UHGV virus genome: UHGV-0164601
From: a virus
Length of the DNA stretch: 40,804 nucleotides
Strand: one strand, 5' to 3'
In this document: piece by piece, positions 5,026 through 40,804 of the stretch
How positions within the stretch are numbered: position 1 is the stretch's first letter
Layout: each line of letters starts with the position of its first letter
The notes under the pieces: generated by a model
Told to the model about the DNA's origin: nothing
Seen by the model: the letters and a program-made list of their open reading frames with translations, nothing else
Databases searched by the model: none
Position numbers and translations under genes: made by a program

Positions 5026-5040
5026 TTACCGTTGAGGTAA
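5026..5040. promoter_or_regulatory. Operator-like palindrome TTACC-GTTGA-GGTAA overlapping the predicted start of the leftward early transcript
   Basis: Perfect 5-bp inverted half-sites with 5-bp spacer; same motif recurs at more than 10 operon starts. Confidence 0.55.
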
Positions 5041-5068
5041 TAATTATGCGTATATGGTTTGATGTCAA
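5041..5068 (-). promoter_or_regulatory. Candidate sigma70 promoter of the leftward early operon
   Basis: Perfect -35 TTGACA on the minus strand (5068..5063) with an AT-rich -10-like hexamer (CATAAT-like, about 5048..5043); bracketed by palindromes at 5026-5040 and 5088-5102. Confidence 0.45.
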
Positions 5069-5087: not shown

Positions 5088-5102
5088 TTACCCGTTAGGT
5101 AA
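5088..5102. promoter_or_regulatory. Operator-like palindrome TTACC-CGTTA-GGTAA upstream of the early-left -35
   Basis: Perfect copy of the recurring 15-bp palindrome. Confidence 0.55.
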
Positions 5103-5112
5103 TCGAATAGGC

Positions 5113-5138
5113 AATAAAAAAGCCGCCATAAGGCGGCT
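5113..5138 (-). terminator. Rho-independent terminator after the repressor gene
   Basis: 7-bp GC stem (AGCCGCC/GGCGGCT), 4-nt loop, followed on the minus strand by TTTTTATT. Confidence 0.6.
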
Positions 5139-5159
5139 TACTTACTGAAAAATATGGTT

Positions 5160-5744
5160 TTATTGTTTGTTTTTTTCGTTCTGGTTGATGACAAATTCAA
5201 TGTAACTTTCGATCTTTGCTTTCTCGGTTTCGGGTAACAATGCGTAGCGCGAGCGATCATAGTTGATGGTCGCAGGGTCGTGCGGGTGAATCAGTAATTC
5301 ATAGCCGTGACGCCCGAATGCGGATGCAACATTCTCCAGGGTGGAAATGGAAACGCTGACCTCATTGTTTAACAGGCGGCTGATTGTCACCTGGGCGACG
5401 CCGGATGCGCGGTGAAGTTTTCCCTGTGTTGAAAGGTCGCGGCTTTCGCTCATCCAGCGTTCCAGGTTGTGAGCCGCCAGCTGGCCAATGTCGCTTGGGC
5501 CGACAGGCTGAAAACCTTCCTGAGAAAGCGAGCGATCGATATCAAGCCAGTTACGGGGTTTATTGGCGGCAGCTTCAATTTTTCGCGCAACCTGATCGCC
5601 GATAACCTTCTTACCAAGAGCCCAGCGGTTTACCAGATTTGCCTGAGTTCCAAGTTTTTCAGCCATCCGCGTCTGAACACCATTGAATTCACGGTCGATC
5701 AAGTCGTTGAGATTTTGCCTGCGGACGTCCTGGATACTTTTCAT
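5160..5744 (-). CDS. Prophage repressor, double helix-turn-helix, no LexA-like S24 peptidase domain
   Basis: N-terminal XRE-type HTH (QTRMAEKLGTQANLVNRWALGKKVIGDQVARKIE) and a second HTH-like segment (VAQVTISRLLNNEVSVSISTLENVASAFG); divergent from a Cro-like gene; no Ser-Lys autocleavage module seen. Confidence 0.65.
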   Translation of the reverse strand: MKSIQDVRRQNLNDLIDREFNGVQTRMAEKLGTQANLVNRWALGKKVIGDQVARKIEAAANKPRNWLDIDRSLSQEGFQPVGPSDIGQLAAHNLERWMSESRDLSTQGKLHRASGVAQVTISRLLNNEVSVSISTLENVASAFGRHGYELLIHPHDPATINYDRSRYALLPETEKAKIESYIEFVINQNEKNKQ

Positions 5745-5799
5745 TTTCTGGAAAATCGCCTCATATATGAATCAGTAGATGATTCAATTTAAAGCAATA

Positions 5800-5862
5800 T
5801 TACCCAACAGGTAAATGCACCTCATGGGTAACTATCCTTGATTTTTGTTACCTTATGGGTGA
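5800..5862. promoter_or_regulatory. Three tandem operator sites in the repressor/Cro-like intergenic region
   Basis: TTACC-CAACA-GGTAA (5800-5814), GCACC-TCATG-GGTAA (5817-5831), TTACC-TTATG-GGTGA (5848-5862). Confidence 0.6.
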
Positions 5863-5873
5863 ATATTTATTAT
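5845..5873 (+). promoter_or_regulatory. Candidate rightward early promoter (PR-like)
   Basis: -35 TTGTTA (5845-5850), 17-bp spacer, -10 TATTAT (5868-5873); the operator at 5848-5862 lies inside the spacer. Confidence 0.45.
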
Positions 5874-5898
5874 CTGAAATAAATATCAGGCAATAGCT

Positions 5899-6129
5899 AT
5901 GAGCGATAACGGACATTTCGATTTCAAAAAGCACTGGCTTGCACTTACTCCGGATGAGCGTGAAGCCTTCGCACAGGAAGCCGGAACGACGAGTCACTAT
6001 ATCCAGACTCACTTAACAGGTAAGCGCAAAATGCCAGGTAAAGTATTGATGAATGGGCTTTTTAAAGCCTGTAAAACAAGACAATGGCTGCGCTCAAAAG
6101 CAGAACTGGCATACTTCTTCTACTCATGA
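5899..6129 (+). CDS. Cro-like small HTH regulator
   Basis: 76-aa protein divergently transcribed from the repressor; HTH-like segment EAFAQEAGTTSHYIQTHLTGKRKMP; followed by a terminator. Confidence 0.5.
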   Translation: MSDNGHFDFKKHWLALTPDEREAFAQEAGTTSHYIQTHLTGKRKMPGKVLMNGLFKACKTRQWLRSKAELAYFFYS

Positions 6130-6150: not shown

Positions 6151-6174
6151 AGACCGCCATCCGGCGGTCTTTTA
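6151..6174 (+). terminator. Rho-independent terminator downstream of the Cro-like gene
   Basis: AGACCGCC-ATCC-GGCGGTCT hairpin followed by TTTT. Confidence 0.55.
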
Positions 6175-6184
6175 ATATCTATTA

Positions 6185-6199
6185 GCACCTTAAGGGTAA
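6185..6199. promoter_or_regulatory. Variant operator GCACC-TTAAG-GGTAA ahead of the replication operon
   Basis: One perfect GGTAA half-site and one GCACC half-site (same variant as 5817-5831); ATGTGGTT motif follows at 6211-6218. Confidence 0.4.
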
Positions 6200-8130: not shown

Positions 8131-8145
8131 TTACCTGATGGGTAA
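8131..8145. promoter_or_regulatory. Operator-like palindrome TTACC-TGATG-GGTAA
   Basis: Perfect copy; 34 bp upstream of the ATGTGGTT motif at 8180-8187. Confidence 0.5.
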
Positions 8146-8192: not shown

Positions 8193-8207
8193 TTACCTAA
8201 GGGGTAA
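8193..8207. promoter_or_regulatory. Operator-like palindrome TTACC-TAAGG-GGTAA overlapping the ribosome-binding site of the next gene
   Basis: Perfect copy ending 3 nt before ATG 8211; the AAGGGG centre doubles as the Shine-Dalgarno. Confidence 0.5.
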
Positions 8208-8210
8208 ATC

Positions 8211-8555
8211 ATGAGAAAACAGATACAGGCTCTTGGTCGGCTCAAAACAGGCCAGATGAACAAAACAGAATCTGCGTATTGCCAGCACCTTGAGCTGCGT
8301 AAACGTGCAGGGGAAATCGCATGGTATCGATTCGAGGGTATCAAGCTGCGGTTAGCTGACAACACGTTCTATACGCCAGATTTCGCTGTGATGCTCGCCA
8401 CCGGAGAGATGGAACTGCACGAAGTGAAAGGTTTCTGGACCGACGACGCCAGGGTGAAAACCAAAGTCGCCGCAGATCAGTATCCGTTCCGAATCATCGG
8501 GGTAACGGTTAAACCAAAGAAAGCAGGTGGTGGCTGGAACATCGAAGAGTTCTGA
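8211..8555 (+). CDS. DUF1064-like phage protein (putative nuclease-fold protein of replication/nin regions)
   Basis: 114 aa; pattern AYCQHLELRKRAGEIAWYRFEGIKLRL...YTPDFAVML...ELHEVKG resembles DUF1064 family members. Confidence 0.5.
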   Translation: MRKQIQALGRLKTGQMNKTESAYCQHLELRKRAGEIAWYRFEGIKLRLADNTFYTPDFAVMLATGEMELHEVKGFWTDDARVKTKVAADQYPFRIIGVTVKPKKAGGGWNIEEF

Positions 8556-11714: not shown

Positions 11715-11729
11715 TTACCACAACGGTAA
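11715..11729. promoter_or_regulatory. Operator-like palindrome TTACC-ACAAC-GGTAA upstream of the small terminase gene
   Basis: Perfect copy; a variant TTACC-ACGGT-GGTTA follows at 11733-11747 overlapping the terS ribosome-binding site. Confidence 0.5.
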
Positions 11730-11746
11730 CAATTACCACGGTGGTT

Positions 11747-12343
11747 ATGATGCCTGCTGAACCTAAAACCTATAAACGCAAATCAACGCAATTTAAGCCG
11801 CTCACAGCAATGCAGGAGGCTTATTGCCAGTCATACATCAAAACGCCTGAAAACCAGACTCAGGCTGCGATTAACGCAGGATTCTCCCCAAATACAGCGG
11901 CAGTTAAAGCCAGTGTCATGATGCGCGATGAACGCATTCAGAAACGGATTGCCGAGTTGATGGAGGAGCGCAACAAACGAATGCGTGTCAGTGCTGATTA
12001 CGTTCTCATGCGCCTGGTGGAGATCGACCAGATGGACGTGATCGACATCCTCAACGACGATGGGAGCCTTAAACCAATCCGTGAGTGGCCGAAAATCTGG
12101 CGCACTACGCTTAGTGGCTTTGATCTGTCATCGACCATCATGAACATGAACGAGGATTCAATAGAGACAATCCTCAAAAAAATTAAATGGCCTGACAAGG
12201 TGAAGAACCTTGAGCTGATTGGTAAGCATGTTGATGTCAACGCATTCAAAGAACGTCTGGATGTTAATGTGAATGTGACAATTGCTGATCGCATAGCAGC
12301 AGCCAGGAAGCGACTCAAAGAACGTCAGGATGGTAATCAGTGA
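11747..12343 (+). CDS. Terminase small subunit (Terminase_2-like)
   Basis: YCQSYIKTP...TQAAINAGFSPNTAAVKASVMMRDERIQKRIAEL matches the small-terminase HTH pattern; start at ATG 11747 (GGTGG upstream); upstream TTG-initiated extension rejected. Confidence 0.7.
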   Translation: MMPAEPKTYKRKSTQFKPLTAMQEAYCQSYIKTPENQTQAAINAGFSPNTAAVKASVMMRDERIQKRIAELMEERNKRMRVSADYVLMRLVEIDQMDVIDILNDDGSLKPIREWPKIWRTTLSGFDLSSTIMNMNEDSIETILKKIKWPDKVKNLELIGKHVDVNAFKERLDVNVNVTIADRIAAARKRLKERQDGNQ

Positions 12344-14523: not shown

Positions 14524-14600
14524 TGGCGTGGCATGCAGGATTCGAACCTGCGACCAACCGCTTAGAAGGCGGTTGCTCTGTCCAACTGAGCTAATGCCAC
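14524..14600 (-). tRNA. tRNA-Arg, anticodon UCU (decodes AGA), phage-internal
   Basis: 77-nt cloverleaf read from the reverse complement: acceptor GTGGCAT/ATGCCAC, D-arm GCTC/GAGC, anticodon stem ACCGC/GCGGT with loop CTTCTAA, T-arm GCAGG-TTCGAAT-CCTGC, discriminator G, encoded CCA. Confidence 0.85.
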
Positions 14601-14922: not shown

Positions 14923-14937
14923 TTACCTGAAAGGTAA
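14923..14937. promoter_or_regulatory. Operator-like palindrome TTACC-TGAAA-GGTAA upstream of the portal operon
   Basis: Perfect copy; 44 bp upstream of ATGTGGTT (14982-14989). Confidence 0.5.
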
Positions 14938-31962: not shown

Positions 31963-31977
31963 TTACCTTTAAGGTAA
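31963..31977. promoter_or_regulatory. Operator-like palindrome TTACC-TTTAA-GGTAA between the predicted -10 and the ribosome-binding site of the cassette
   Basis: Perfect copy immediately upstream of the AGGAGG Shine-Dalgarno. Confidence 0.5.
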
Positions 31978-32050: not shown

Positions 32051-32737
32051 TCAGAAGAACCCTGCCTTGTCGTTGATGTACTCCGCGTGCGTCTGGATAT
32101 CACGCAGGCATTTGCTCACACCGACGATGTAGCAGAACATGGTGGTCAGTTCCGCCGCCGCGCCCGATACATCATGCCCGTCGTCCTGCAACTGATTCAG
32201 CAGATTCATCAGCAATGAGTTCTCCGTCAGGCCGAGAACACCCGACGGCGAATGAATCAGACTGCGGTAGCCTGGCTTCAGTGGGGCACTGTAGGTTTTG
32301 TTCTCTATCTTCATCGCCTGCATTACTGCTGACGCCGTGGCGTTGGCTACCTGGTCGGCAACCATCTTTATGCGCTCTTCCTGCGGGAGCGAGTTTTTAA
32401 TGTAGCTTCCGGTGCGGCGGATCTGAGGAAGAACCTCACCTGTAACCCATTTGCGAAAGCGGTAGGGGATAGTGCCTGGTGTCACTGCGTCGCGGCAGCG
32501 GAGGATCAGTGTGTAGAGGCCTGACTCGTTGATAATATTGGTTTCGCCTTGACGGCCTAAGTTAAATTTAGCCCTTTCATCATCATCAAGAGATTTTATT
32601 GACATAGTGGGGTTTGTCAGTTGAAGAGCTTTAATAACGTCTTTGGCAACAAACCAAGGATTTCCATCAATAACAATGGCTCGAATGGTTGCTTCTGATT
32701 CAAAATGAAAAACAGATGGGGTTACGTTAGCAGTCAT
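32051..32737 (-). CDS. Phage antirepressor (BRO-N domain with KilA-C/Ant-type C-terminal domain)
   Basis: N-terminal FHFESEATIRAIVIDGNPWFVAKDVIKALQL...ESGLYTLILRCRDA is a typical BRO-N motif; start at ATG 32737 (AAGGTG upstream) rather than the ORF-track start 32890, which would run through the leader hairpin. Confidence 0.75.
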   Translation of the reverse strand: MTANVTPSVFHFESEATIRAIVIDGNPWFVAKDVIKALQLTNPTMSIKSLDDDERAKFNLGRQGETNIINESGLYTLILRCRDAVTPGTIPYRFRKWVTGEVLPQIRRTGSYIKNSLPQEERIKMVADQVANATASAVMQAMKIENKTYSAPLKPGYRSLIHSPSGVLGLTENSLLMNLLNQLQDDGHDVSGAAAELTTMFCYIVGVSKCLRDIQTHAEYINDKAGFF

Positions 32738-32890
32738 AGTGATCACCTTTGTAGTTAGGTTAATCACCACTACCGACGCCAATCGGTTGGTGGTGAACTG
32801 TGCAGGGTTGGCGTAACCGGCTACAAAGGACCCGGCGCACCTTTCGGTGCCCCCACACAGCCCACCATAGAATAGGTGCGCTTTACACAT

Positions 32891-32909
32891 AAAAAAACCG
32901 CTTATGCGG
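32891..32909 (-). terminator. Weak terminator/attenuator-like hairpin in the antirepressor leader
   Basis: CCGC-TTAT-GCGG hairpin followed on the minus strand by TTTTTTT. Confidence 0.3.
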
Positions 32910-32924
32910 CATATGTGCCTCTGT

Positions 32925-32976
32925 AGTAATCCGGGACGCCAATCCCGGCACTGGATTTTGCCAGTGCCCGATTACT
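32925..32976. other. Structured element (nested inverted repeats) upstream of the antirepressor; candidate leader RNA or small RNA
   Basis: AGTAATCCGGG...CCCGATTACT outer stem enclosing hairpins CCGGGA-CGCCAA-TCCCGG and CACTGG-ATTTTG-CCAGTG. Confidence 0.3.
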
Positions 32977-33003: not shown

Positions 33004-33018
33004 TTACCGTAAAGGTAA
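33004..33018. promoter_or_regulatory. Operator-like palindrome TTACC-GTAAA-GGTAA
   Basis: Perfect copy in the divergent region between the antirepressor and the membrane zinc-ribbon gene. Confidence 0.5.
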
Positions 33019-33096
33019 TGATAAGCGCGAAGAAACATTAAAATCAACCGTATTTGGTTGATTGCGTTTAACGCTTGATCACCTGAAAGCAAGATA

Positions 33097-33111
33097 TTAC
33101 CTTTAAGGTAA
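33097..33111. promoter_or_regulatory. Operator-like palindrome TTACC-TTTAA-GGTAA
   Basis: Perfect copy 21 bp upstream of ATG 33132; identical sequence to the site at 31963-31977. Confidence 0.5.
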
Positions 33112-33131: not shown

Positions 33132-33860
33132 ATGGAAGTTTTCTGGATAGTTGTTGGTGTGGTTGCGGTGATTATTTACGTTATCAACCAGAACAAGACT
33201 AAGATCTCTGATCGTACGGTCGTTAATCATAACAAAACGATAAAGACCGAAGATGGGGAGATAACGATTAATCGTACACAGGTGATAGAACACACCTCTA
33301 CTCAGTTTCAAAAAACTGGAGGTAATGCGCCTAATATTTCCGCACCTCCTGCTTATGATAGTGCGGTAATCCAGACATATTATAAACAGCAGGAGTTAGC
33401 AAAAGAGAGGCAACTGATTCAGCCAAAGCCGTTTACAGCTGAGATTCCACCTGGAGTGTCAACGCGTCCGGCATATCATGGAAGATTCCCTGGTGATGAC
33501 ATATCGTCTCAGTCATCTAAAAAAGCACCTCAGGCAATATCAGAGCCAGCAAGAATACCTTCTGTATCGCTGCCAAAAGAAGAATCAGCTAACAGAGTTT
33601 CAAGTGGTAGCAAGCAGTGCTTGCGATGCAGAATAAACCTTCCATATGAAAAATTCAGGAAATCGTCAAAAAATCCAGATGGATTGACTAAATGGTGTGC
33701 AAGGTGTCTCGATGGCCCAAAGAATACACGCCATATGAAGTGGTGCCCAATTTGTAATGTCCGCAGAAAACGAACCAGCTTTTACCCTAATAATCAAAAT
33801 GCGGACGGCTTAATGGCATGGTGCAAAACGTGCTGGGATGAGCACAAAGCGAAACGATAG
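33132..33860 (+). CDS. Membrane-anchored protein with duplicated CxxC-x22-WCxxC zinc-ribbon (rubredoxin-like) modules
   Basis: N-terminal hydrophobic helix FWIVVGVVAVIIYVI, Pro/Ser/Gln-rich linker, then CLRC...DGLTKWCARC and CPIC...DGLMAWCKTC repeats; GAGGA before ATG 33132. Confidence 0.6.
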   Translation: MEVFWIVVGVVAVIIYVINQNKTKISDRTVVNHNKTIKTEDGEITINRTQVIEHTSTQFQKTGGNAPNISAPPAYDSAVIQTYYKQQELAKERQLIQPKPFTAEIPPGVSTRPAYHGRFPGDDISSQSSKKAPQAISEPARIPSVSLPKEESANRVSSGSKQCLRCRINLPYEKFRKSSKNPDGLTKWCARCLDGPKNTRHMKWCPICNVRRKRTSFYPNNQNADGLMAWCKTCWDEHKAKR

Positions 33861-33884
33861 GCCGCTCTTGCGGCCTTTAAATTT
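33860..33884 (+). terminator. Rho-independent terminator after the zinc-ribbon gene
   Basis: GGCCGC-TCTT-GCGGCC hairpin followed by TTTAAATTT. Confidence 0.55.
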
Positions 33885-34140
33885 ACCGGGTTTGTTTTCG
33901 TAATTGTTCGGCACAATAGTCGAGATGTGTTTGCAGATCCCGCATAGACATCTGTGAGCTGGTGACGTAGTTAATCAGTGCAGTCAGTTCGGCAAGTGGG
34001 CCATCGACATTAAATCCATCCTTATCGAGATCCCGGAGTAATTTCATCAAGTGCGATCCCTCCACCAGTGACCTGACGCCTCCCGGCGTGTGAATCCTTT
34101 CGGTAAATCCGTCTTCCAGTGGATAGTGATACTGCTGCAT
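33883..34140 (-). CDS. Small antirepressor-like protein (85 aa), stand-alone paralog of the antirepressor C-terminal domain, with a LexA box in its promoter
   Basis: TPGGVRSLVEGSHLMKLLRDLDKDGFNVDGPLAELTALINYV...MRDLQTHLDY aligns with the C-terminus of the 32051-32737 protein (SPSGVLGLTENSLLMNLLNQLQDDGHDVSGAAAELTTMFCYI...LRDIQTHAEY); start at ATG 34140 with GGAG upstream. Confidence 0.55.
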   Translation of the reverse strand: MQQYHYPLEDGFTERIHTPGGVRSLVEGSHLMKLLRDLDKDGFNVDGPLAELTALINYVTSSQMSMRDLQTHLDYCAEQLRKQTR

Positions 34141-34159: not shown

Positions 34160-34179
34160 AACTGTATATTTATACAGTA
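34160..34179. promoter_or_regulatory. LexA (SOS) box
   Basis: AACTGTATATTTATACAGTA: CTGT-N8-ACAG with an AT-only spacer, 18 of 20 matches to the E. coli consensus TACTGTATATATATACAGTA; 20 bp upstream of ATG 34140. Confidence 0.65.
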
Positions 34180-34216: not shown

Positions 34217-34231
34217 TTACCCGAAAGGTAA
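34217..34231. promoter_or_regulatory. Operator-like palindrome TTACC-CGAAA-GGTAA
   Basis: Perfect copy between the SOS-box gene and the tailspike gene; 32 bp upstream of ATGTGGTT (34264-34271). Confidence 0.5.
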
Positions 34232-39515: not shown

Positions 39516-39665
39516 CATGGCATTTTTCATGGTACTGATTTCCGGTGACGGTATATAAAACGGTACTAGAAAAATGAAGTTTTGGAAAAATGTTATCACT
39601 CAATTGGTTATGATTGTCGTAAATAATTGAGTGGGAATGATTTGAACCCTGTACTATGAATGAAC

Positions 39666-39733: not shown

Positions 39734-40273
39734 TTAGTTAAACCAGCTGTCCGATTTGTTCTCTTCTGCTTTACCCACGCTTTTCATCAGATCGCGACCG
39801 CCTTCAGTCATATTTCTGTTTGCGTCAGCTTCAGATTGCACCACATCGGTTTGCGCAGCTTTGTGCTTCAGTTCCTGATCGATAAATTCGTTTTCGCGCT
39901 TAACGCGGGCTTCTTCTTTCGCCAGCGCCAGTTTTTGCTTCTGAATCTCTAAGCTACGTAGCTCATCTTCATAACTTTGATCGCGTTTTTTGTCCGCAGT
40001 GGCTTCGGCGTCCAGTTTATCCTGACGAGCTTTCTTATTCGCTGCTGCCGTTGCCGCTCTTTTATTAGCCGCGGCCTGGGCGTTTGCGCGACGTTGCTTC
40101 TCTTGCTGGATTTCCCTGTTGCGCTCCGCGACCCATTCGTCATGCTGCCTTTGCTCTTCATTTTTACCTTGCTGTTCCGCTTCTGCGACAGCCGAGAGTT
40201 GATCCTGCAATGATGAGGCGATAGCCGGATAGCTTAAGGAGGCTAAGATGGCGCAAAGAAAAACTTTCTTCAT
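39734..40273 (-). CDS. Periplasmic Lys/Ala/Glu/Gln-rich coiled-coil protein with signal peptide (host-like)
   Basis: MKKVFLCAILASLSYPAIASS signal peptide followed by charged coiled-coil-like sequence; lies beyond the lysis cassette and terminator. Confidence 0.5.
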   Translation of the reverse strand: MKKVFLCAILASLSYPAIASSLQDQLSAVAEAEQQGKNEEQRQHDEWVAERNREIQQEKQRRANAQAAANKRAATAAANKKARQDKLDAEATADKKRDQSYEDELRSLEIQKQKLALAKEEARVKRENEFIDQELKHKAAQTDVVQSEADANRNMTEGGRDLMKSVGKAEENKSDSWFN

Positions 40274-40288
40274 GACTCCTCCTGATTA

Positions 40289-40804
40289 TTAGCTCTTTTC
40301 AGGACATTTGGTATTTGGCTGAATACGCGTTTCGTTATACGTCGTGGTAATAACAACGGCTAAACCTGTCGTAAACTGGCACTCTTTACCCACCTGGGTG
40401 GAGGTATACACTTTGGTGCCTTCCTTATATGTTAAAGAAACACCTTCCACTAAGGTTTTATCATTCACCATAGAACCCGCTGCTGCGCCAACAGCTCCGC
40501 CGCCAACTGCACCTGCTGTCGTTCCGGAATTGCTGCCAGACCCGACGTTGTGGCCGATAACACCGCCAGCGACAGCGCCAATAAGCGCGCCGAAGGCTTG
40601 TGCGTTCCGTTTATTTTGGGCGTTGTCTACGGCAACTTTTGCGGGAAGAATGGAAATAATATTAACGGTTTTAGTTTCTTGTTTGGTATTCAGTTGATCG
40701 GTTTGATAAACATCGGCGGCATGATCATCAGCATTTGACTGGCATCCTGCCAGAGTAAATGACGCTAACATTGCCACAGGCAGAAGACATTTTTTTAATT
40801 TCAT
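40289..40804 (-). CDS. Outer-membrane lipoprotein with glycine-zipper domain (SlyB/Pcp-like), host-like
   Basis: Lipobox LAGC after MKLKKCLLPVAMLASFT; Gly/Ala zipper GALIGAVAGGVIGHNVGSG...GAVGGGAVGAAAGS; start codon at the window edge. Confidence 0.55.
   Translation of the reverse strand: MKLKKCLLPVAMLASFTLAGCQSNADDHAADVYQTDQLNTKQETKTVNIISILPAKVAVDNAQNKRNAQAFGALIGAVAGGVIGHNVGSGSNSGTTAGAVGGGAVGAAAGSMVNDKTLVEGVSLTYKEGTKVYTSTQVGKECQFTTGLAVVITTTYNETRIQPNTKCPEKS

Follow-up and report, generated by a model that had tools for sequence, protein, structure and literature searches.

Three conserved operators in a phiV10/epsilon15-type prophage point to an immunity switch resembling Rep/Ant of Salmonella phage SPC32H

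The Rep/Ant switch of Salmonella phage SPC32H was reportedly described by Kim and Ryu in 2013 and by Kim et al. in 2016 (PDB 5D4Z, 5D50), and Kim and Ryu are said to have found that a single mutation of the LexA box makes Ant constitutive in SPC32N. According to two reviews, the SPC32H repressor is inactivated by a LexA-controlled antirepressor and not by cleavage (PMC7380047, PMC9638917), with Ant being made after LexA cleavage (PMC7380047) and breaking the tetramer in which Rep binds DNA (PMC9638917). A 2023 structural paper gives the domain architecture of Rep as DBD-MDD-TetDloop and states that the way in which tetrameric Rep represses is not extensively characterised (PMC9986798). In ZX5, overexpression experiments have revealed that ORF21 favours lysogeny and ORF4 favours lysis (PMC9782041).

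Here, we analysed a window of 40,804 nucleotides (UHGV virus genome UHGV-0164601; the whole stretch of DNA) and focused on the intergenic region 5745-5898. As the original prediction had proposed, the ORF calls place this region between a divergent repressor gene starting at 5744 and a Cro-like gene starting at 5899:

5160-5744, minus strand: rep, an ORF for a 194-aa prophage repressor
5120-5139, minus strand: terminator-like hairpin after rep (scan), at a place where a terminator is annotated in phiV10
5899-6129, plus strand: Cro-position gene for a 76-aa HTH protein
6151-6170, plus strand: terminator-like hairpin after the Cro-like gene (scan), an annotated terminator in phiV10

The region very probably serves a phiV10/epsilon15-type prophage (genus Uetakevirus) as its primary immunity switch, similar to the SPC32H Rep/Ant system. 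It is 97.9-99.4% identical to phiV10, EC.W1-9, and PAS61; the immunity region is 98% identical in phiV10 and vB_EcoP_ZX5, and the att core ATTGAGTGGGAATGATT is common to this prophage and phiV10/ZX5 (PMC9782041). The element was found in 561 of 5426 complete E. coli genomes (~10%).

The likeness to SPC32H covers the genus-level genome layout, homology of Rep over its full length, an Ant of ~87% identity, a LexA box in the corresponding position before ant, three operators that share half-sites, 17 + 30/31-bp spacing and a TTGATT -35, and operator pairs 62 bp apart both at OL and after the replication genes. The two systems differ in several respects. Identity to the crystallised Rep of SPC32H is only ~42%, the operator centres (5 bp) read CAACA/TCATG/TTATG here versus ATAAA/ATAAT/AAAAA in SPC32H, and the O2-O3 spacing is 31 bp here versus 30 bp. 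In addition, the AT inverted repeat that follows O3 is confined to the phiV10 clade, and the Bro-N-Ant fusion with its isrK/C4 leader is present here and has no counterpart in SPC32H.

We found three operators exactly where the original prediction had placed them:

5800-5814: operator O1, TTACCCAACAGGTAA, 0 mismatches to TTACC-N5-GGTAA, overlapping the candidate leftward rep promoter
5817-5831: operator O2, GCACCTCATGGGTAA, 2 mismatches to TTACC-N5-GGTAA
5848-5862: operator O3, TTACCTTATGGGTGA, 1 mismatch to TTACC-N5-GGTAA

Measured from centre to centre, O2 is 17 bp from O1 and 31 bp from O3. Such sites are far more frequent than chance would give, as the whole window holds 38 at up to two mismatches versus 11.3 expected, and three fall in 5745-5898, where the expectation per 154 bp is ~0.04. 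All three operators keep their position in eight phage/prophage lineages from seven genera, with the 17 + 30/31-bp spacing retained and the ACC/GGT cores of O2 invariant, and by these sequence comparisons we take them to be genuine, conserved operators. The operator layout is not shared by distant relatives matching the N-terminal domain only (Paraburkholderia, Hydrogenovibrio, and Thiomicrospira).

The promoters around these operators are candidates, whose hexamers are weak matches to the consensus:

5838-5867, plus strand: conserved PR candidate, -35 TTGATT (5838-5843), 17/18-nt spacer, -10 GAATAT/AATATT (5861-5867)
5845-5873, plus strand: PR candidate of the original prediction, TTGTTA (5845-5850), 17-nt spacer, TATTAT (5868-5873), 9/12 (scan)
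5786-5815, minus strand: candidate rep (PRM-like) promoter, TTTACC (5815..5810), 18-nt spacer, TAAATT (5791..5786), 8/12 (script scan)

The TTGTTA/TATTAT pair and its 17-nt spacer are indeed present, but the conserved element is TTGATT, which is invariant as a -35 in 8/8 lineages from seven genera; the SPC32H clade carries TTGATT-16-AATAAT (9/12) as the equivalent of PR. Among the eight lineages compared, the TTGTTA/TATTAT pair is confined to the window, phiV10, and Tyrion, and its -10 has changed to TGTTAT in the Superficieibacter and Erwinia prophages and is missing from the SPC32H clade. Operator O3, which had been placed within the 17-nt spacer, occupies 12 of the 17 spacer positions but also the last 3 nt of the TTGTTA -35. 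It lies in the rightward promoter spacer under either choice of hexamers, and with these candidate hexamers, it covers the core of the rightward promoter. On the other strand, O1 lies over the -35 and spacer of the candidate rep promoter and O2 is centred near -45; the hexamers are the same in 4/8 lineages, and 5786-5815 would presumably serve as a PRM-like promoter for rep. Promoter-like matches are not enriched in the region, with 3 found versus 3.1 in shuffles. The octamer ATGTGGTT was also considered as a promoter element; it has 4 copies versus 1.6 expected, a count that is not significant.

A further element follows O3:

5863-5871 + 5878-5886: AT-only inverted repeat with perfect 9-bp arms, ATATTTATT-N6-AATAAATAT

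This repeat had been described as lying between the -10 and the Cro-like start and as a possible site of a second regulator. It is perfect at the predicted coordinates, but because its left arm overlaps the proposed -10 (5868-5873), it is partly outside the interval between the -10 and the start codon; it also overlaps the likely transcription start. That the repeat is the operator of a second regulator, such as the Cro-like protein, is unlikely, since it overlaps the -10 and its symmetry decays in relatives: arm complementarity is 8/9 and 7/9 in Superficieibacter and Erwinia prophages, with changes that are uncompensated, although the repeat is intact in Tyrion despite a region identity of only 77%. 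A 9-bp inverted repeat of such kind arises in 1.2% of region shuffles and this one is unique in the window even allowing 3 mismatches, and its position over the PR -10/start region would suit a repressor; however, the surroundings are conserved as a block and not as a symmetric pair, which is expected of promoter and leader sequence. A role as a Cro site is also unlikely, given that the SPC32H clade has no such repeat although its Cro-like HTH is invariant. An RNA hairpin was rejected, as the RNA is not unusually stable (z -1.25) and the repeat is mostly upstream of any plausible start site, and so was a LexA box (CTG-N10-CAG, 5874-5889), which a scan for the LexA consensus did not return even with 7 mismatches allowed.

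The same operators recur across the genome, where the window holds 11 perfect copies of TTACC-N5-GGTAA versus 0.01 expected, all of them intergenic and often paired at distances of 31/62/93 bp. The copies outside 5745-5898, together with the promoter at OL and one imperfect site, are as follows:

5026-5040: OL1, perfect operator, centred on the predicted leftward promoter start
5040-5068, minus strand: PL-like promoter, TTGACA-17-AATTAT, 10/12 (scan)
5088-5102: OL2, a perfect copy that lies upstream of the PL -35 at a distance of 62 bp from OL1
6185-6199: operator-like site with 2 mismatches, before the next rightward gene
8131-8145: perfect operator that opens a 62-bp pair behind the replication genes
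8193-8207: perfect operator, second of this pair, overlapping the ribosome-binding site of the DUF1064 gene
11715-11747: perfect operator and, 18 bp from it, a second site with 1 mismatch, both immediately before the small terminase gene
14923-14937: perfect operator upstream of the portal/head operon
31963-31977: perfect operator in the gap that separates the Bro-N-Ant stop from a small leftward gene
33004-33018: perfect operator immediately next to the -35 in the candidate isrK promoter (promoter read by eye, RNA start from the Rfam match)
33097-33111: perfect operator 93 bp from the copy at 33004-33018, just upstream of the rightward gene at 33132
34217-34231: perfect Rep-type operator in the ant/tailspike intergenic region

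Many of these copies are kept in relatives. The OL pair is spaced 62 bp (once 63 bp) in 9/10 related genomes, with Scandinavium showing 80/20/41, and the pair after the replication genes is kept in SPC32H, phiV10, Tyrion, and three prophages. The site at 6185-6199 has a match at the same place with 1 mismatch in phiV10 and Tyrion, and the operator at 34217-34231 is conserved in all four phages, namely, the one in the window, SPC32H, phiV10, and Tyrion. Judging from their positions, pairs at 31/62/93 bp would be compatible with binding by a tetramer.

As far as the sequence can tell, TTACC-N5-GGTAA may be read by Rep, by the Cro-like protein, or by both, as the recognition regions of both proteins are conserved across clades (NLVNRW in Rep, AGTTSHYIQ.HLT in the Cro-like HTH), the latter in the very clades that share the operator half-sites. 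The 76-aa protein matches PHROG 35 'transcriptional repressor' (E 5.6e-13) and is 76% identical to SPC32H_042, and searches of Pfam and NCBIfam gave no match to it. Its AF2 single-sequence model has five helices (pLDDT 81.6), with YdaS and the 434 repressor DBD as the nearest folds (TM 0.56-0.62, all E>1). We consider it very unlikely that the sites are read mainly by a regulator other than Rep, with the protein in the Cro position and the PHROG 536 regulator encoded before terminase as candidates. A late regulator would be expected upstream of the terminase, portal, lysis, and tailspike genes, and sites do occur there; the invariance of the Cro-like HTH agrees with another reader as well. However, NLVNRW of Rep is equally invariant, and rep has clusters of two or three sites on either side that cover the PR- and PL-like promoters, a pattern that marks a maintenance repressor. 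Moreover, the identical repressor, ZX5 ORF21, when overexpressed, abolished free phage and reduced lysis-gene transcripts by at least 99.97% (PMC9782041). Operators shared by Rep and Cro, as in lambda, would fit both sets of facts.

The repressor itself is 100% identical to phiV10 p40 and to the ZX5 repressor ORF21. In phmmer searches, residues 1-190/194 of Rep aligned to residues 2-197 of SPC32H Rep (PDB 5D50_A, E 4e-42), and the structure of a C-terminal fragment, 5D4Z, was matched as well. Pfam assigned HTH_3 to residues 106-147 and a weak YdaS-type HTH to residues 21-61, and the C-terminal motif Y-D..Y..LP..EK.KI is invariant across clades. Two HTH units had been predicted and two HTH stretches exist, but the second one corresponds to the Rep dimerisation domain and is not a DNA reader (PMC9986798). 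By this homology, Rep is composed of an N-terminal HTH domain for DNA binding, a middle HTH_3-like dimerisation domain, and a C-terminal domain for tetramerisation and Ant binding. The prediction that Rep lacks an autocleavage domain was borne out, as an HMM search of the 194-aa protein gave no Peptidase_S24 (PF00717) match at E<=1 and its homologue is the full-length SPC32H Rep.

The region is similar to lambda OR in having three palindromic operators between a repressor gene and a divergent Cro-position gene. One operator falls within PR, another covers the candidate repressor promoter, and the middle one is centred at about -45 relative to the candidate rep start, as OR2 is at PRM. It differs from lambda OR in its spacings (17 and 31 bp versus 23-24 bp), in its predicted tetrameric repressor with a different oligomerisation domain, and in predicted induction by an antirepressor in place of an S24 autocleavage domain. 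A classical lambda-type switch, which would be induced when the repressor cleaves itself under RecA stimulation and in which antirepressors are accessory, draws on the resemblance of this tripartite operator to lambda OR, but it is extremely improbable and, judged by predicted domains, refuted at that level, because neither Peptidase_S24 nor any LexA, CI, or UmuD structure (among PDB matches) was found for Rep at E<=1, the alignment of residues 1-190/194 to SPC32H Rep leaves no room for a cleavage domain, and the SPC32H system is classed with antirepressor-induced prophages in the review literature (PMC7380047).

Two antirepressor-type genes had been predicted in place of cleavage, and both are present:

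33883-34140, minus strand: ant, an 85-aa antirepressor
34160-34179: LexA box, AACTGTATATTTATACAGTA, upstream of ant at 19 bp from its start codon
32051-32743, minus strand: Bro-N-Ant, a second antirepressor with a Bro-N domain fused to a C-terminal Ant-like domain
32786-32967, minus strand: Bro-N-Ant leader, with an isrK-family sRNA (32891-32967) and a C4 antisense RNA (32786-32872)

The small Ant matches PDB 5D50_E 'Anti-repressor protein' (E 1.4e-46), with 72/83 aligned residues identical, and its gene lies beside the tailspike gene, the same position as the SPC32H ant. The box at 34160-34179 has 2 mismatches to the 20-mer LexA consensus; no other site in the window comes this close, and the box is shared by SPC32H, phiV10, and Tyrion. 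Co-repression of ant by Rep through the operator at 34217 was considered and is doubtful, as this operator is upstream of the likely ant -35 and mutation of the LexA box alone reportedly suffices in SPC32N. The cognate Ant, the predicted LexA box, the missing S24 domain, and the reviews on SPC32H (PMC7380047, PMC9638917) all argue for induction through an antirepressor, as was originally suggested. An uncleavable repressor with an antirepressor gene behind a LexA box is also found in the Gifsy prophages and in coliphage 186 with Tum, according to a review (PMC7380047), although the protein families differ.

The second antirepressor contains Bro-N (PF02498, E 7.8e-20, Pfam) in the ORF 32051-32890, matches 5D50_E at its C-terminus (E 2.7e-13), and belongs to PHROG 130 'anti-repressor Ant' (E 2.7e-56). 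It is 82% identical to ZX5 ORF4, a Bro-N antirepressor whose overexpression lowered the prophage titre 1000-fold (PMC9782041). A LexA consensus scan found no LexA box before this gene, and both RNAs of the leader matched Rfam families over their full length (isrK, 76.8 bits, threshold 50; C4, 79.5 bits, threshold 45). Antirepressor leaders containing a C4 antisense RNA and an isrK-family sRNA that has its own terminator are also known from Gifsy-1 isrK-orf45-anrP and P1 immI (c4-icd-ant) (PMC4825925). In contrast to these, the leader here precedes a Bro-N-Ant fusion, the promoter region is flanked by two Rep-type operators, and the regulation is putative.

Taken together, we propose that Rep would read the 15-bp palindromes TTACC-N5-GGTAA through its N-terminal HTH domain and would dimerise through its middle domain and tetramerise through its C-terminal domain, so that each tetramer would carry two DNA-reading pairs. 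At OR, O3 in the spacer of the rightward promoter would block this promoter, O1 would lie over the candidate rep promoter, and O2, at 31 bp or some three helical turns from O3, would sit in between. At OL, the two sites 62 bp apart would bracket the leftward promoter. As Rep has no LexA-like peptidase domain, cleavage would not be expected; instead, DNA damage would inactivate the host LexA and free the LexA box before ant, and Ant would then bind the C-terminal domains of Rep, break the tetramer, and release the DNA.

There is nothing new in such a switch, the mechanism of which is already known from the same-genus Salmonella phage SPC32H; the original reading is correct, yet because the antirepressor mechanism is established for this relative, it is ordinary rather than novel and carries little weight as a discovery. 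Its practical value is a precise annotation for phiV10-like prophages, including the O157 typing phages: the phiV10/ZX5 records and the ZX5 paper (PMC9782041) leave the operators, the small Ant as inducer, and the LexA box unannotated, and the gain consists of operator coordinates with their consensus, the conserved -35, the small Ant with its LexA box, and the putatively RNA-controlled second antirepressor.

Operators accompany almost all transcription units: besides OL and OR, they occur at the operon after the replication genes, at terminase, the portal operon, and the tailspike, and at each of the two antirepressor loci. We tentatively suggest, as a possibility with the odds against it, that Rep is a genome-wide repressor rather than a two-operator switch, whose tetramer clamps phased pairs and which receives two antirepressor inputs. 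If this is true, one Rep tetramer on a helically phased pair at 31/62/93 bp could enclose a promoter in a tiny loop, and the inputs would be the LexA-gated Ant and the Bro-N-Ant fusion, the latter with an isrK/C4 leader and Rep operators but no LexA box, which could add positive feedback once Rep begins failing. The phased operator pairs would thus offer a concrete, testable handle on repression by tetrameric Rep.

The window is an integrated podophage of the phiV10/epsilon15 type, genus Uetakevirus, as judged from a near-identical switch region, its gene order, and its attachment core. Over the 1.4 kb around the switch, identity is 97.9–99.4% to Escherichia phages EC.W1-9, PAS61, and phiV10 and 77% to Enterobacter phage Tyrion; of 5426 complete E. 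coli genomes, 561 carry this region, nearly always in the chromosome. An integrase gene (position 1) is followed by early, packaging, structural, and lysis genes and by the att core ATTGAGTGGGAATGATT (39626-39642), which marks the prophage end and equals the attP reported for phiV10 and vB_EcoP_ZX5 (PMC9782041). Past the core, 39734-40804 is presumably host DNA, with genes for a DUF5384 protein and a glycine-zipper/TraT-like lipoprotein. A tRNA gene lies at 14527-14600 (−; Rfam, 73.3 bits), and Salmonella phage SPC32H has a tRNA-Arg in the same region. The system is the known Uetakevirus Rep/Ant (repressor/antirepressor) switch in a prophage type that is already well sampled. The original prediction, three operators with a non-cleavable repressor induced through an antirepressor, is supported as a whole, with corrections to the promoter hexamers, to what the second HTH-like domain does, and to the reading of an AT-only repeat.

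The repressor gene rep (5160-5744, −, 194 aa) diverges from the gene in the Cro position (5899-6129, +, 76 aa) across a gap of 154 bp. Rep has the same sequence as phiV10 p40 and the ZX5 repressor (100% identity) and shares 75–78% identity with the Enterobacter phage repressors and about 42% with their epsilon15 and SPC32H counterparts. No Pfam match to Peptidase_S24 was found in Rep at E ≤ 1, and residues 1-190 align with the SPC32H repressor (PDB 5D50 chain A, E 4e-42), which therefore leaves no space for a cleavage domain; the predicted lack of a LexA-like peptidase domain thus holds. The C-terminal half also aligns with the fragment structure 5D4Z. Pfam detects HTH_3 in two stretches (best 106-147) and a weak YdaS-type HTH at 21-61, which agrees with two HTH units, but the second is, by analogy, the dimerisation domain, because a 2023 structural paper on SPC32H Rep (PMC9986798) assigns DNA binding to the N-terminal domain, dimerisation to the middle one, and both tetramerisation and Ant binding to the C-terminal one. 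The SPC32H Rep tetramer binds DNA with two DNA-reading pairs derived from different dimers, and tetrameric Ant binds two Rep dimers, breaking the Rep tetramer (PMC9638917). When the identical repressor was overexpressed in ZX5, free phage was abolished and holin and endolysin transcripts were cut by 99.97% or more (PMC9782041).

We found all three predicted operators, O1 (5800-5814), O2 (5817-5831), and O3 (5848-5862), exactly where they had been placed, with 0, 2, and 1 mismatches to TTACC-N5-GGTAA. Three such sites (≤2 mismatches) in the 154-bp gap compare with about 0.04 expected; the window holds 38 at this threshold (11.3 expected) and 11 perfect ones (0.01 expected). The intergenic region was aligned across eight lineages from seven genera: the window, Tyrion, SPC32H, Klebsiella phage BUCT711, and prophages of Superficieibacter, Erwinia dacicola, Citrobacter, and Scandinavium. 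All eight have three operators with invariant ACC/GGT cores, spaced 17 bp and then 30 bp (SPC32H clade) or 31 bp (phiV10 clade).

The predicted rightward promoter PR, TTGTTA-17-TATTAT (5845-5873), matches at 9/12, and promoter-like matches are no commoner here than in shuffled sequence. Its hexamers are limited to the window phage, phiV10, and Tyrion, and in the Superficieibacter and Erwinia prophages the −10 becomes TGTTAT, losing the key A. By comparison, TTGATT just upstream of O3 (5838-5843) is invariant in the eight lineages; with it as −35, the phiV10 clade would have GAATAT or AATATT (5861-5867; 17- or 18-nt spacer) as −10 and the SPC32H clade AATAAT (16-nt spacer, 9/12). The conserved TTGATT promoter is the better guess for PR. 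O3 lies over the core promoter with either set, so that the functional point stands. On the opposite strand, TTTACC-18-TAAATT (5815..5786), found in four of the eight lineages, is a weak candidate rep promoter. O1 would then cover both its −35 and its spacer, with O2 centred near −45, a placement that would recall OR3 and OR2 at lambda PRM. Directly 3' of the Cro-position gene are a terminator-like hairpin and then an operator-like site (6151-6199). PR may thus drive little beyond the Cro-position gene, barring read-through, unlike the long PR operon of lambda.

The Cro-position protein has no match in Pfam or NCBIfam and matches PHROG 35 ‘transcriptional repressor’ (E 5.6e-13). Its single-sequence AlphaFold model has five helices (pLDDT 81.6) and, among solved folds, comes closest to those of prophage YdaS and of the DNA-binding domain of the 434 repressor (TM 0.56–0.62, all E > 1). 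The label ‘Cro-like’ is reasonable but not proven.

The AT-only inverted repeat (5863-5871/5878-5886), proposed as a second regulator's site, is indeed perfect, but its left arm overlaps the proposed −10. Such a repeat arises in 1.2% of region shuffles; this one has no second copy in the window even with 3 mismatches allowed, and it is intact in Tyrion. However, complementarity falls to 8/9 in Superficieibacter and 7/9 in the Erwinia prophage with no compensating changes, and the intergenic alignment shows no such repeat in the SPC32H clade. If the Cro-position protein read it, the repeat should be common to both clades, since the window and SPC32H proteins are 76% identical with an invariant HTH (AGTTSHYIQ.HLT); yet the SPC32H clade is without it. 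A second regulator's site is thus improbable. The simplest reading is promoter and leader sequence that is symmetric by chance, because the phiV10 clade conserves the entire stretch running from O3 up to the start codon. An RNA hairpin (stability not unusual, z −1.25; mostly upstream of any plausible start site) and a LexA site (not LexA-like) were rejected.

Both antirepressor-type genes predicted for this phage are present, namely ant and a Bro-N domain fused to an Ant-like C-terminus (Bro-N-Ant).

Antirepressor loci
33883-34140 (−): ant, 85 aa when started at the in-frame ATG 34140
34160-34179: LexA box AACTGTATATTTATACAGTA, 19 bp upstream of the ant start codon, 2 mismatches to the 20-mer consensus
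32051-32743 (−): Bro-N-Ant gene; Bro-N domain, C-terminal domain homologous to Ant (E 2.7e-13)
32891-32967 (−): isrK-family sRNA in the Bro-N-Ant leader; Rfam, full length, above gathering score, own terminator
32786-32872 (−): C4 antisense RNA in the same leader; Rfam, full length, above gathering score

Ant aligns with 5D50 chain E (‘Anti-repressor protein’; E 1.4e-46) over 83 residues, 72 of them identical, and its gene adjoins the tailspike gene, as in SPC32H. The LexA box is the sole strong one in the window and aligns with corresponding boxes in SPC32H, phiV10, and Tyrion. In 2013, Kim and Ryu reportedly saw that Rep stays uncleaved during SOS and that one point mutation in the LexA box made the sibling phage SPC32N constitutively lytic. 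A review counts SPC32H with the prophages whose antirepressor is made once LexA is cleaved and then inactivates the repressor (PMC7380047).

No LexA box was found at the Bro-N-Ant locus. A candidate isrK promoter read from the sequence, TTTACA-17-CATAGT, ends 7 nt ahead of the Rfam isrK start, and the operator at 33004 abuts its −35. A long ORF (32051-32890) extends in frame from immediately past the isrK terminator into the Bro-N gene. P1 immI shares the layout of this isrK/C4 leader. Gifsy-1 isrK-orf45-anrP has it too (PMC4825925). The Bro-N-Ant protein is 82% identical to ZX5 ORF4, whose overexpression lowered prophage titre 1000-fold (PMC9782041). Between the two antirepressor loci, a 242-aa protein (33132-33860, +; PHROG 6762) has a cysteine-rich C-terminus and weak endonuclease VII/Lar-like matches; a perfect operator sits just upstream of its ribosome-binding site.

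All 11 perfect operators are intergenic, ahead of nearly every transcription unit, and most have positional counterparts in SPC32H, phiV10, and Tyrion, and also in prophages of other genera.

Operators and operator-like sites
5026, 5088: left operator (OL) pair, 62 bp apart, flanking a leftward promoter TTGACA-17-AATTAT
5800 (perfect), 5817 and 5848 (imperfect): right operator, rep-cro gap
6185: operator-like site after the Cro-gene terminator, 2 mismatches
8131, 8193: pair after the replication genes, 62 bp apart
11715, 11733 (1 mismatch): upstream of the small terminase
14923: upstream of the portal operon
31963, 33004, 33097: Bro-N-Ant locus, 33004-33097 being 93 bp
34217: ant/tailspike gap

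Within 8193-8213, the second post-replication operator overlaps the ribosome-binding site AAGGGG of a DUF1064 gene and stops 4 nt short of the ATG. The annotated or longest small terminase ORF starts at TTG 11669 and would include both operator sites; ATG 11747, directly after them, is the more likely start, and in SPC32H the operator is upstream of the annotated start. The octamer ATGTGGTT has four intergenic copies (6211, 8180, 14982, 34264; +), each lying 26–59 bp past a Rep-type operator and ahead of a rightward gene; in three, a T-rich stretch and GGTAAT come next. The octamer may act in middle or late promoters, the count alone (4 against 1.6 expected) not being significant.

The OL pair keeps its 62 bp (63 bp once) in nine of ten related genomes, the exception being the Scandinavium prophage (sites 80, 20, and 41 bp apart), and the post-replication pair is 62 bp apart in all seven genomes with that region available. 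At about 10.3 bp per turn, pair spacings of 31, 62, and 93 bp make three, six, and nine turns, and the phased pairs would fit a Rep tetramer holding two sites on one helix face with its two DNA-reading pairs. Only these phased genome-wide operators and the RNA-gated second antirepressor might extend what is known of the system.
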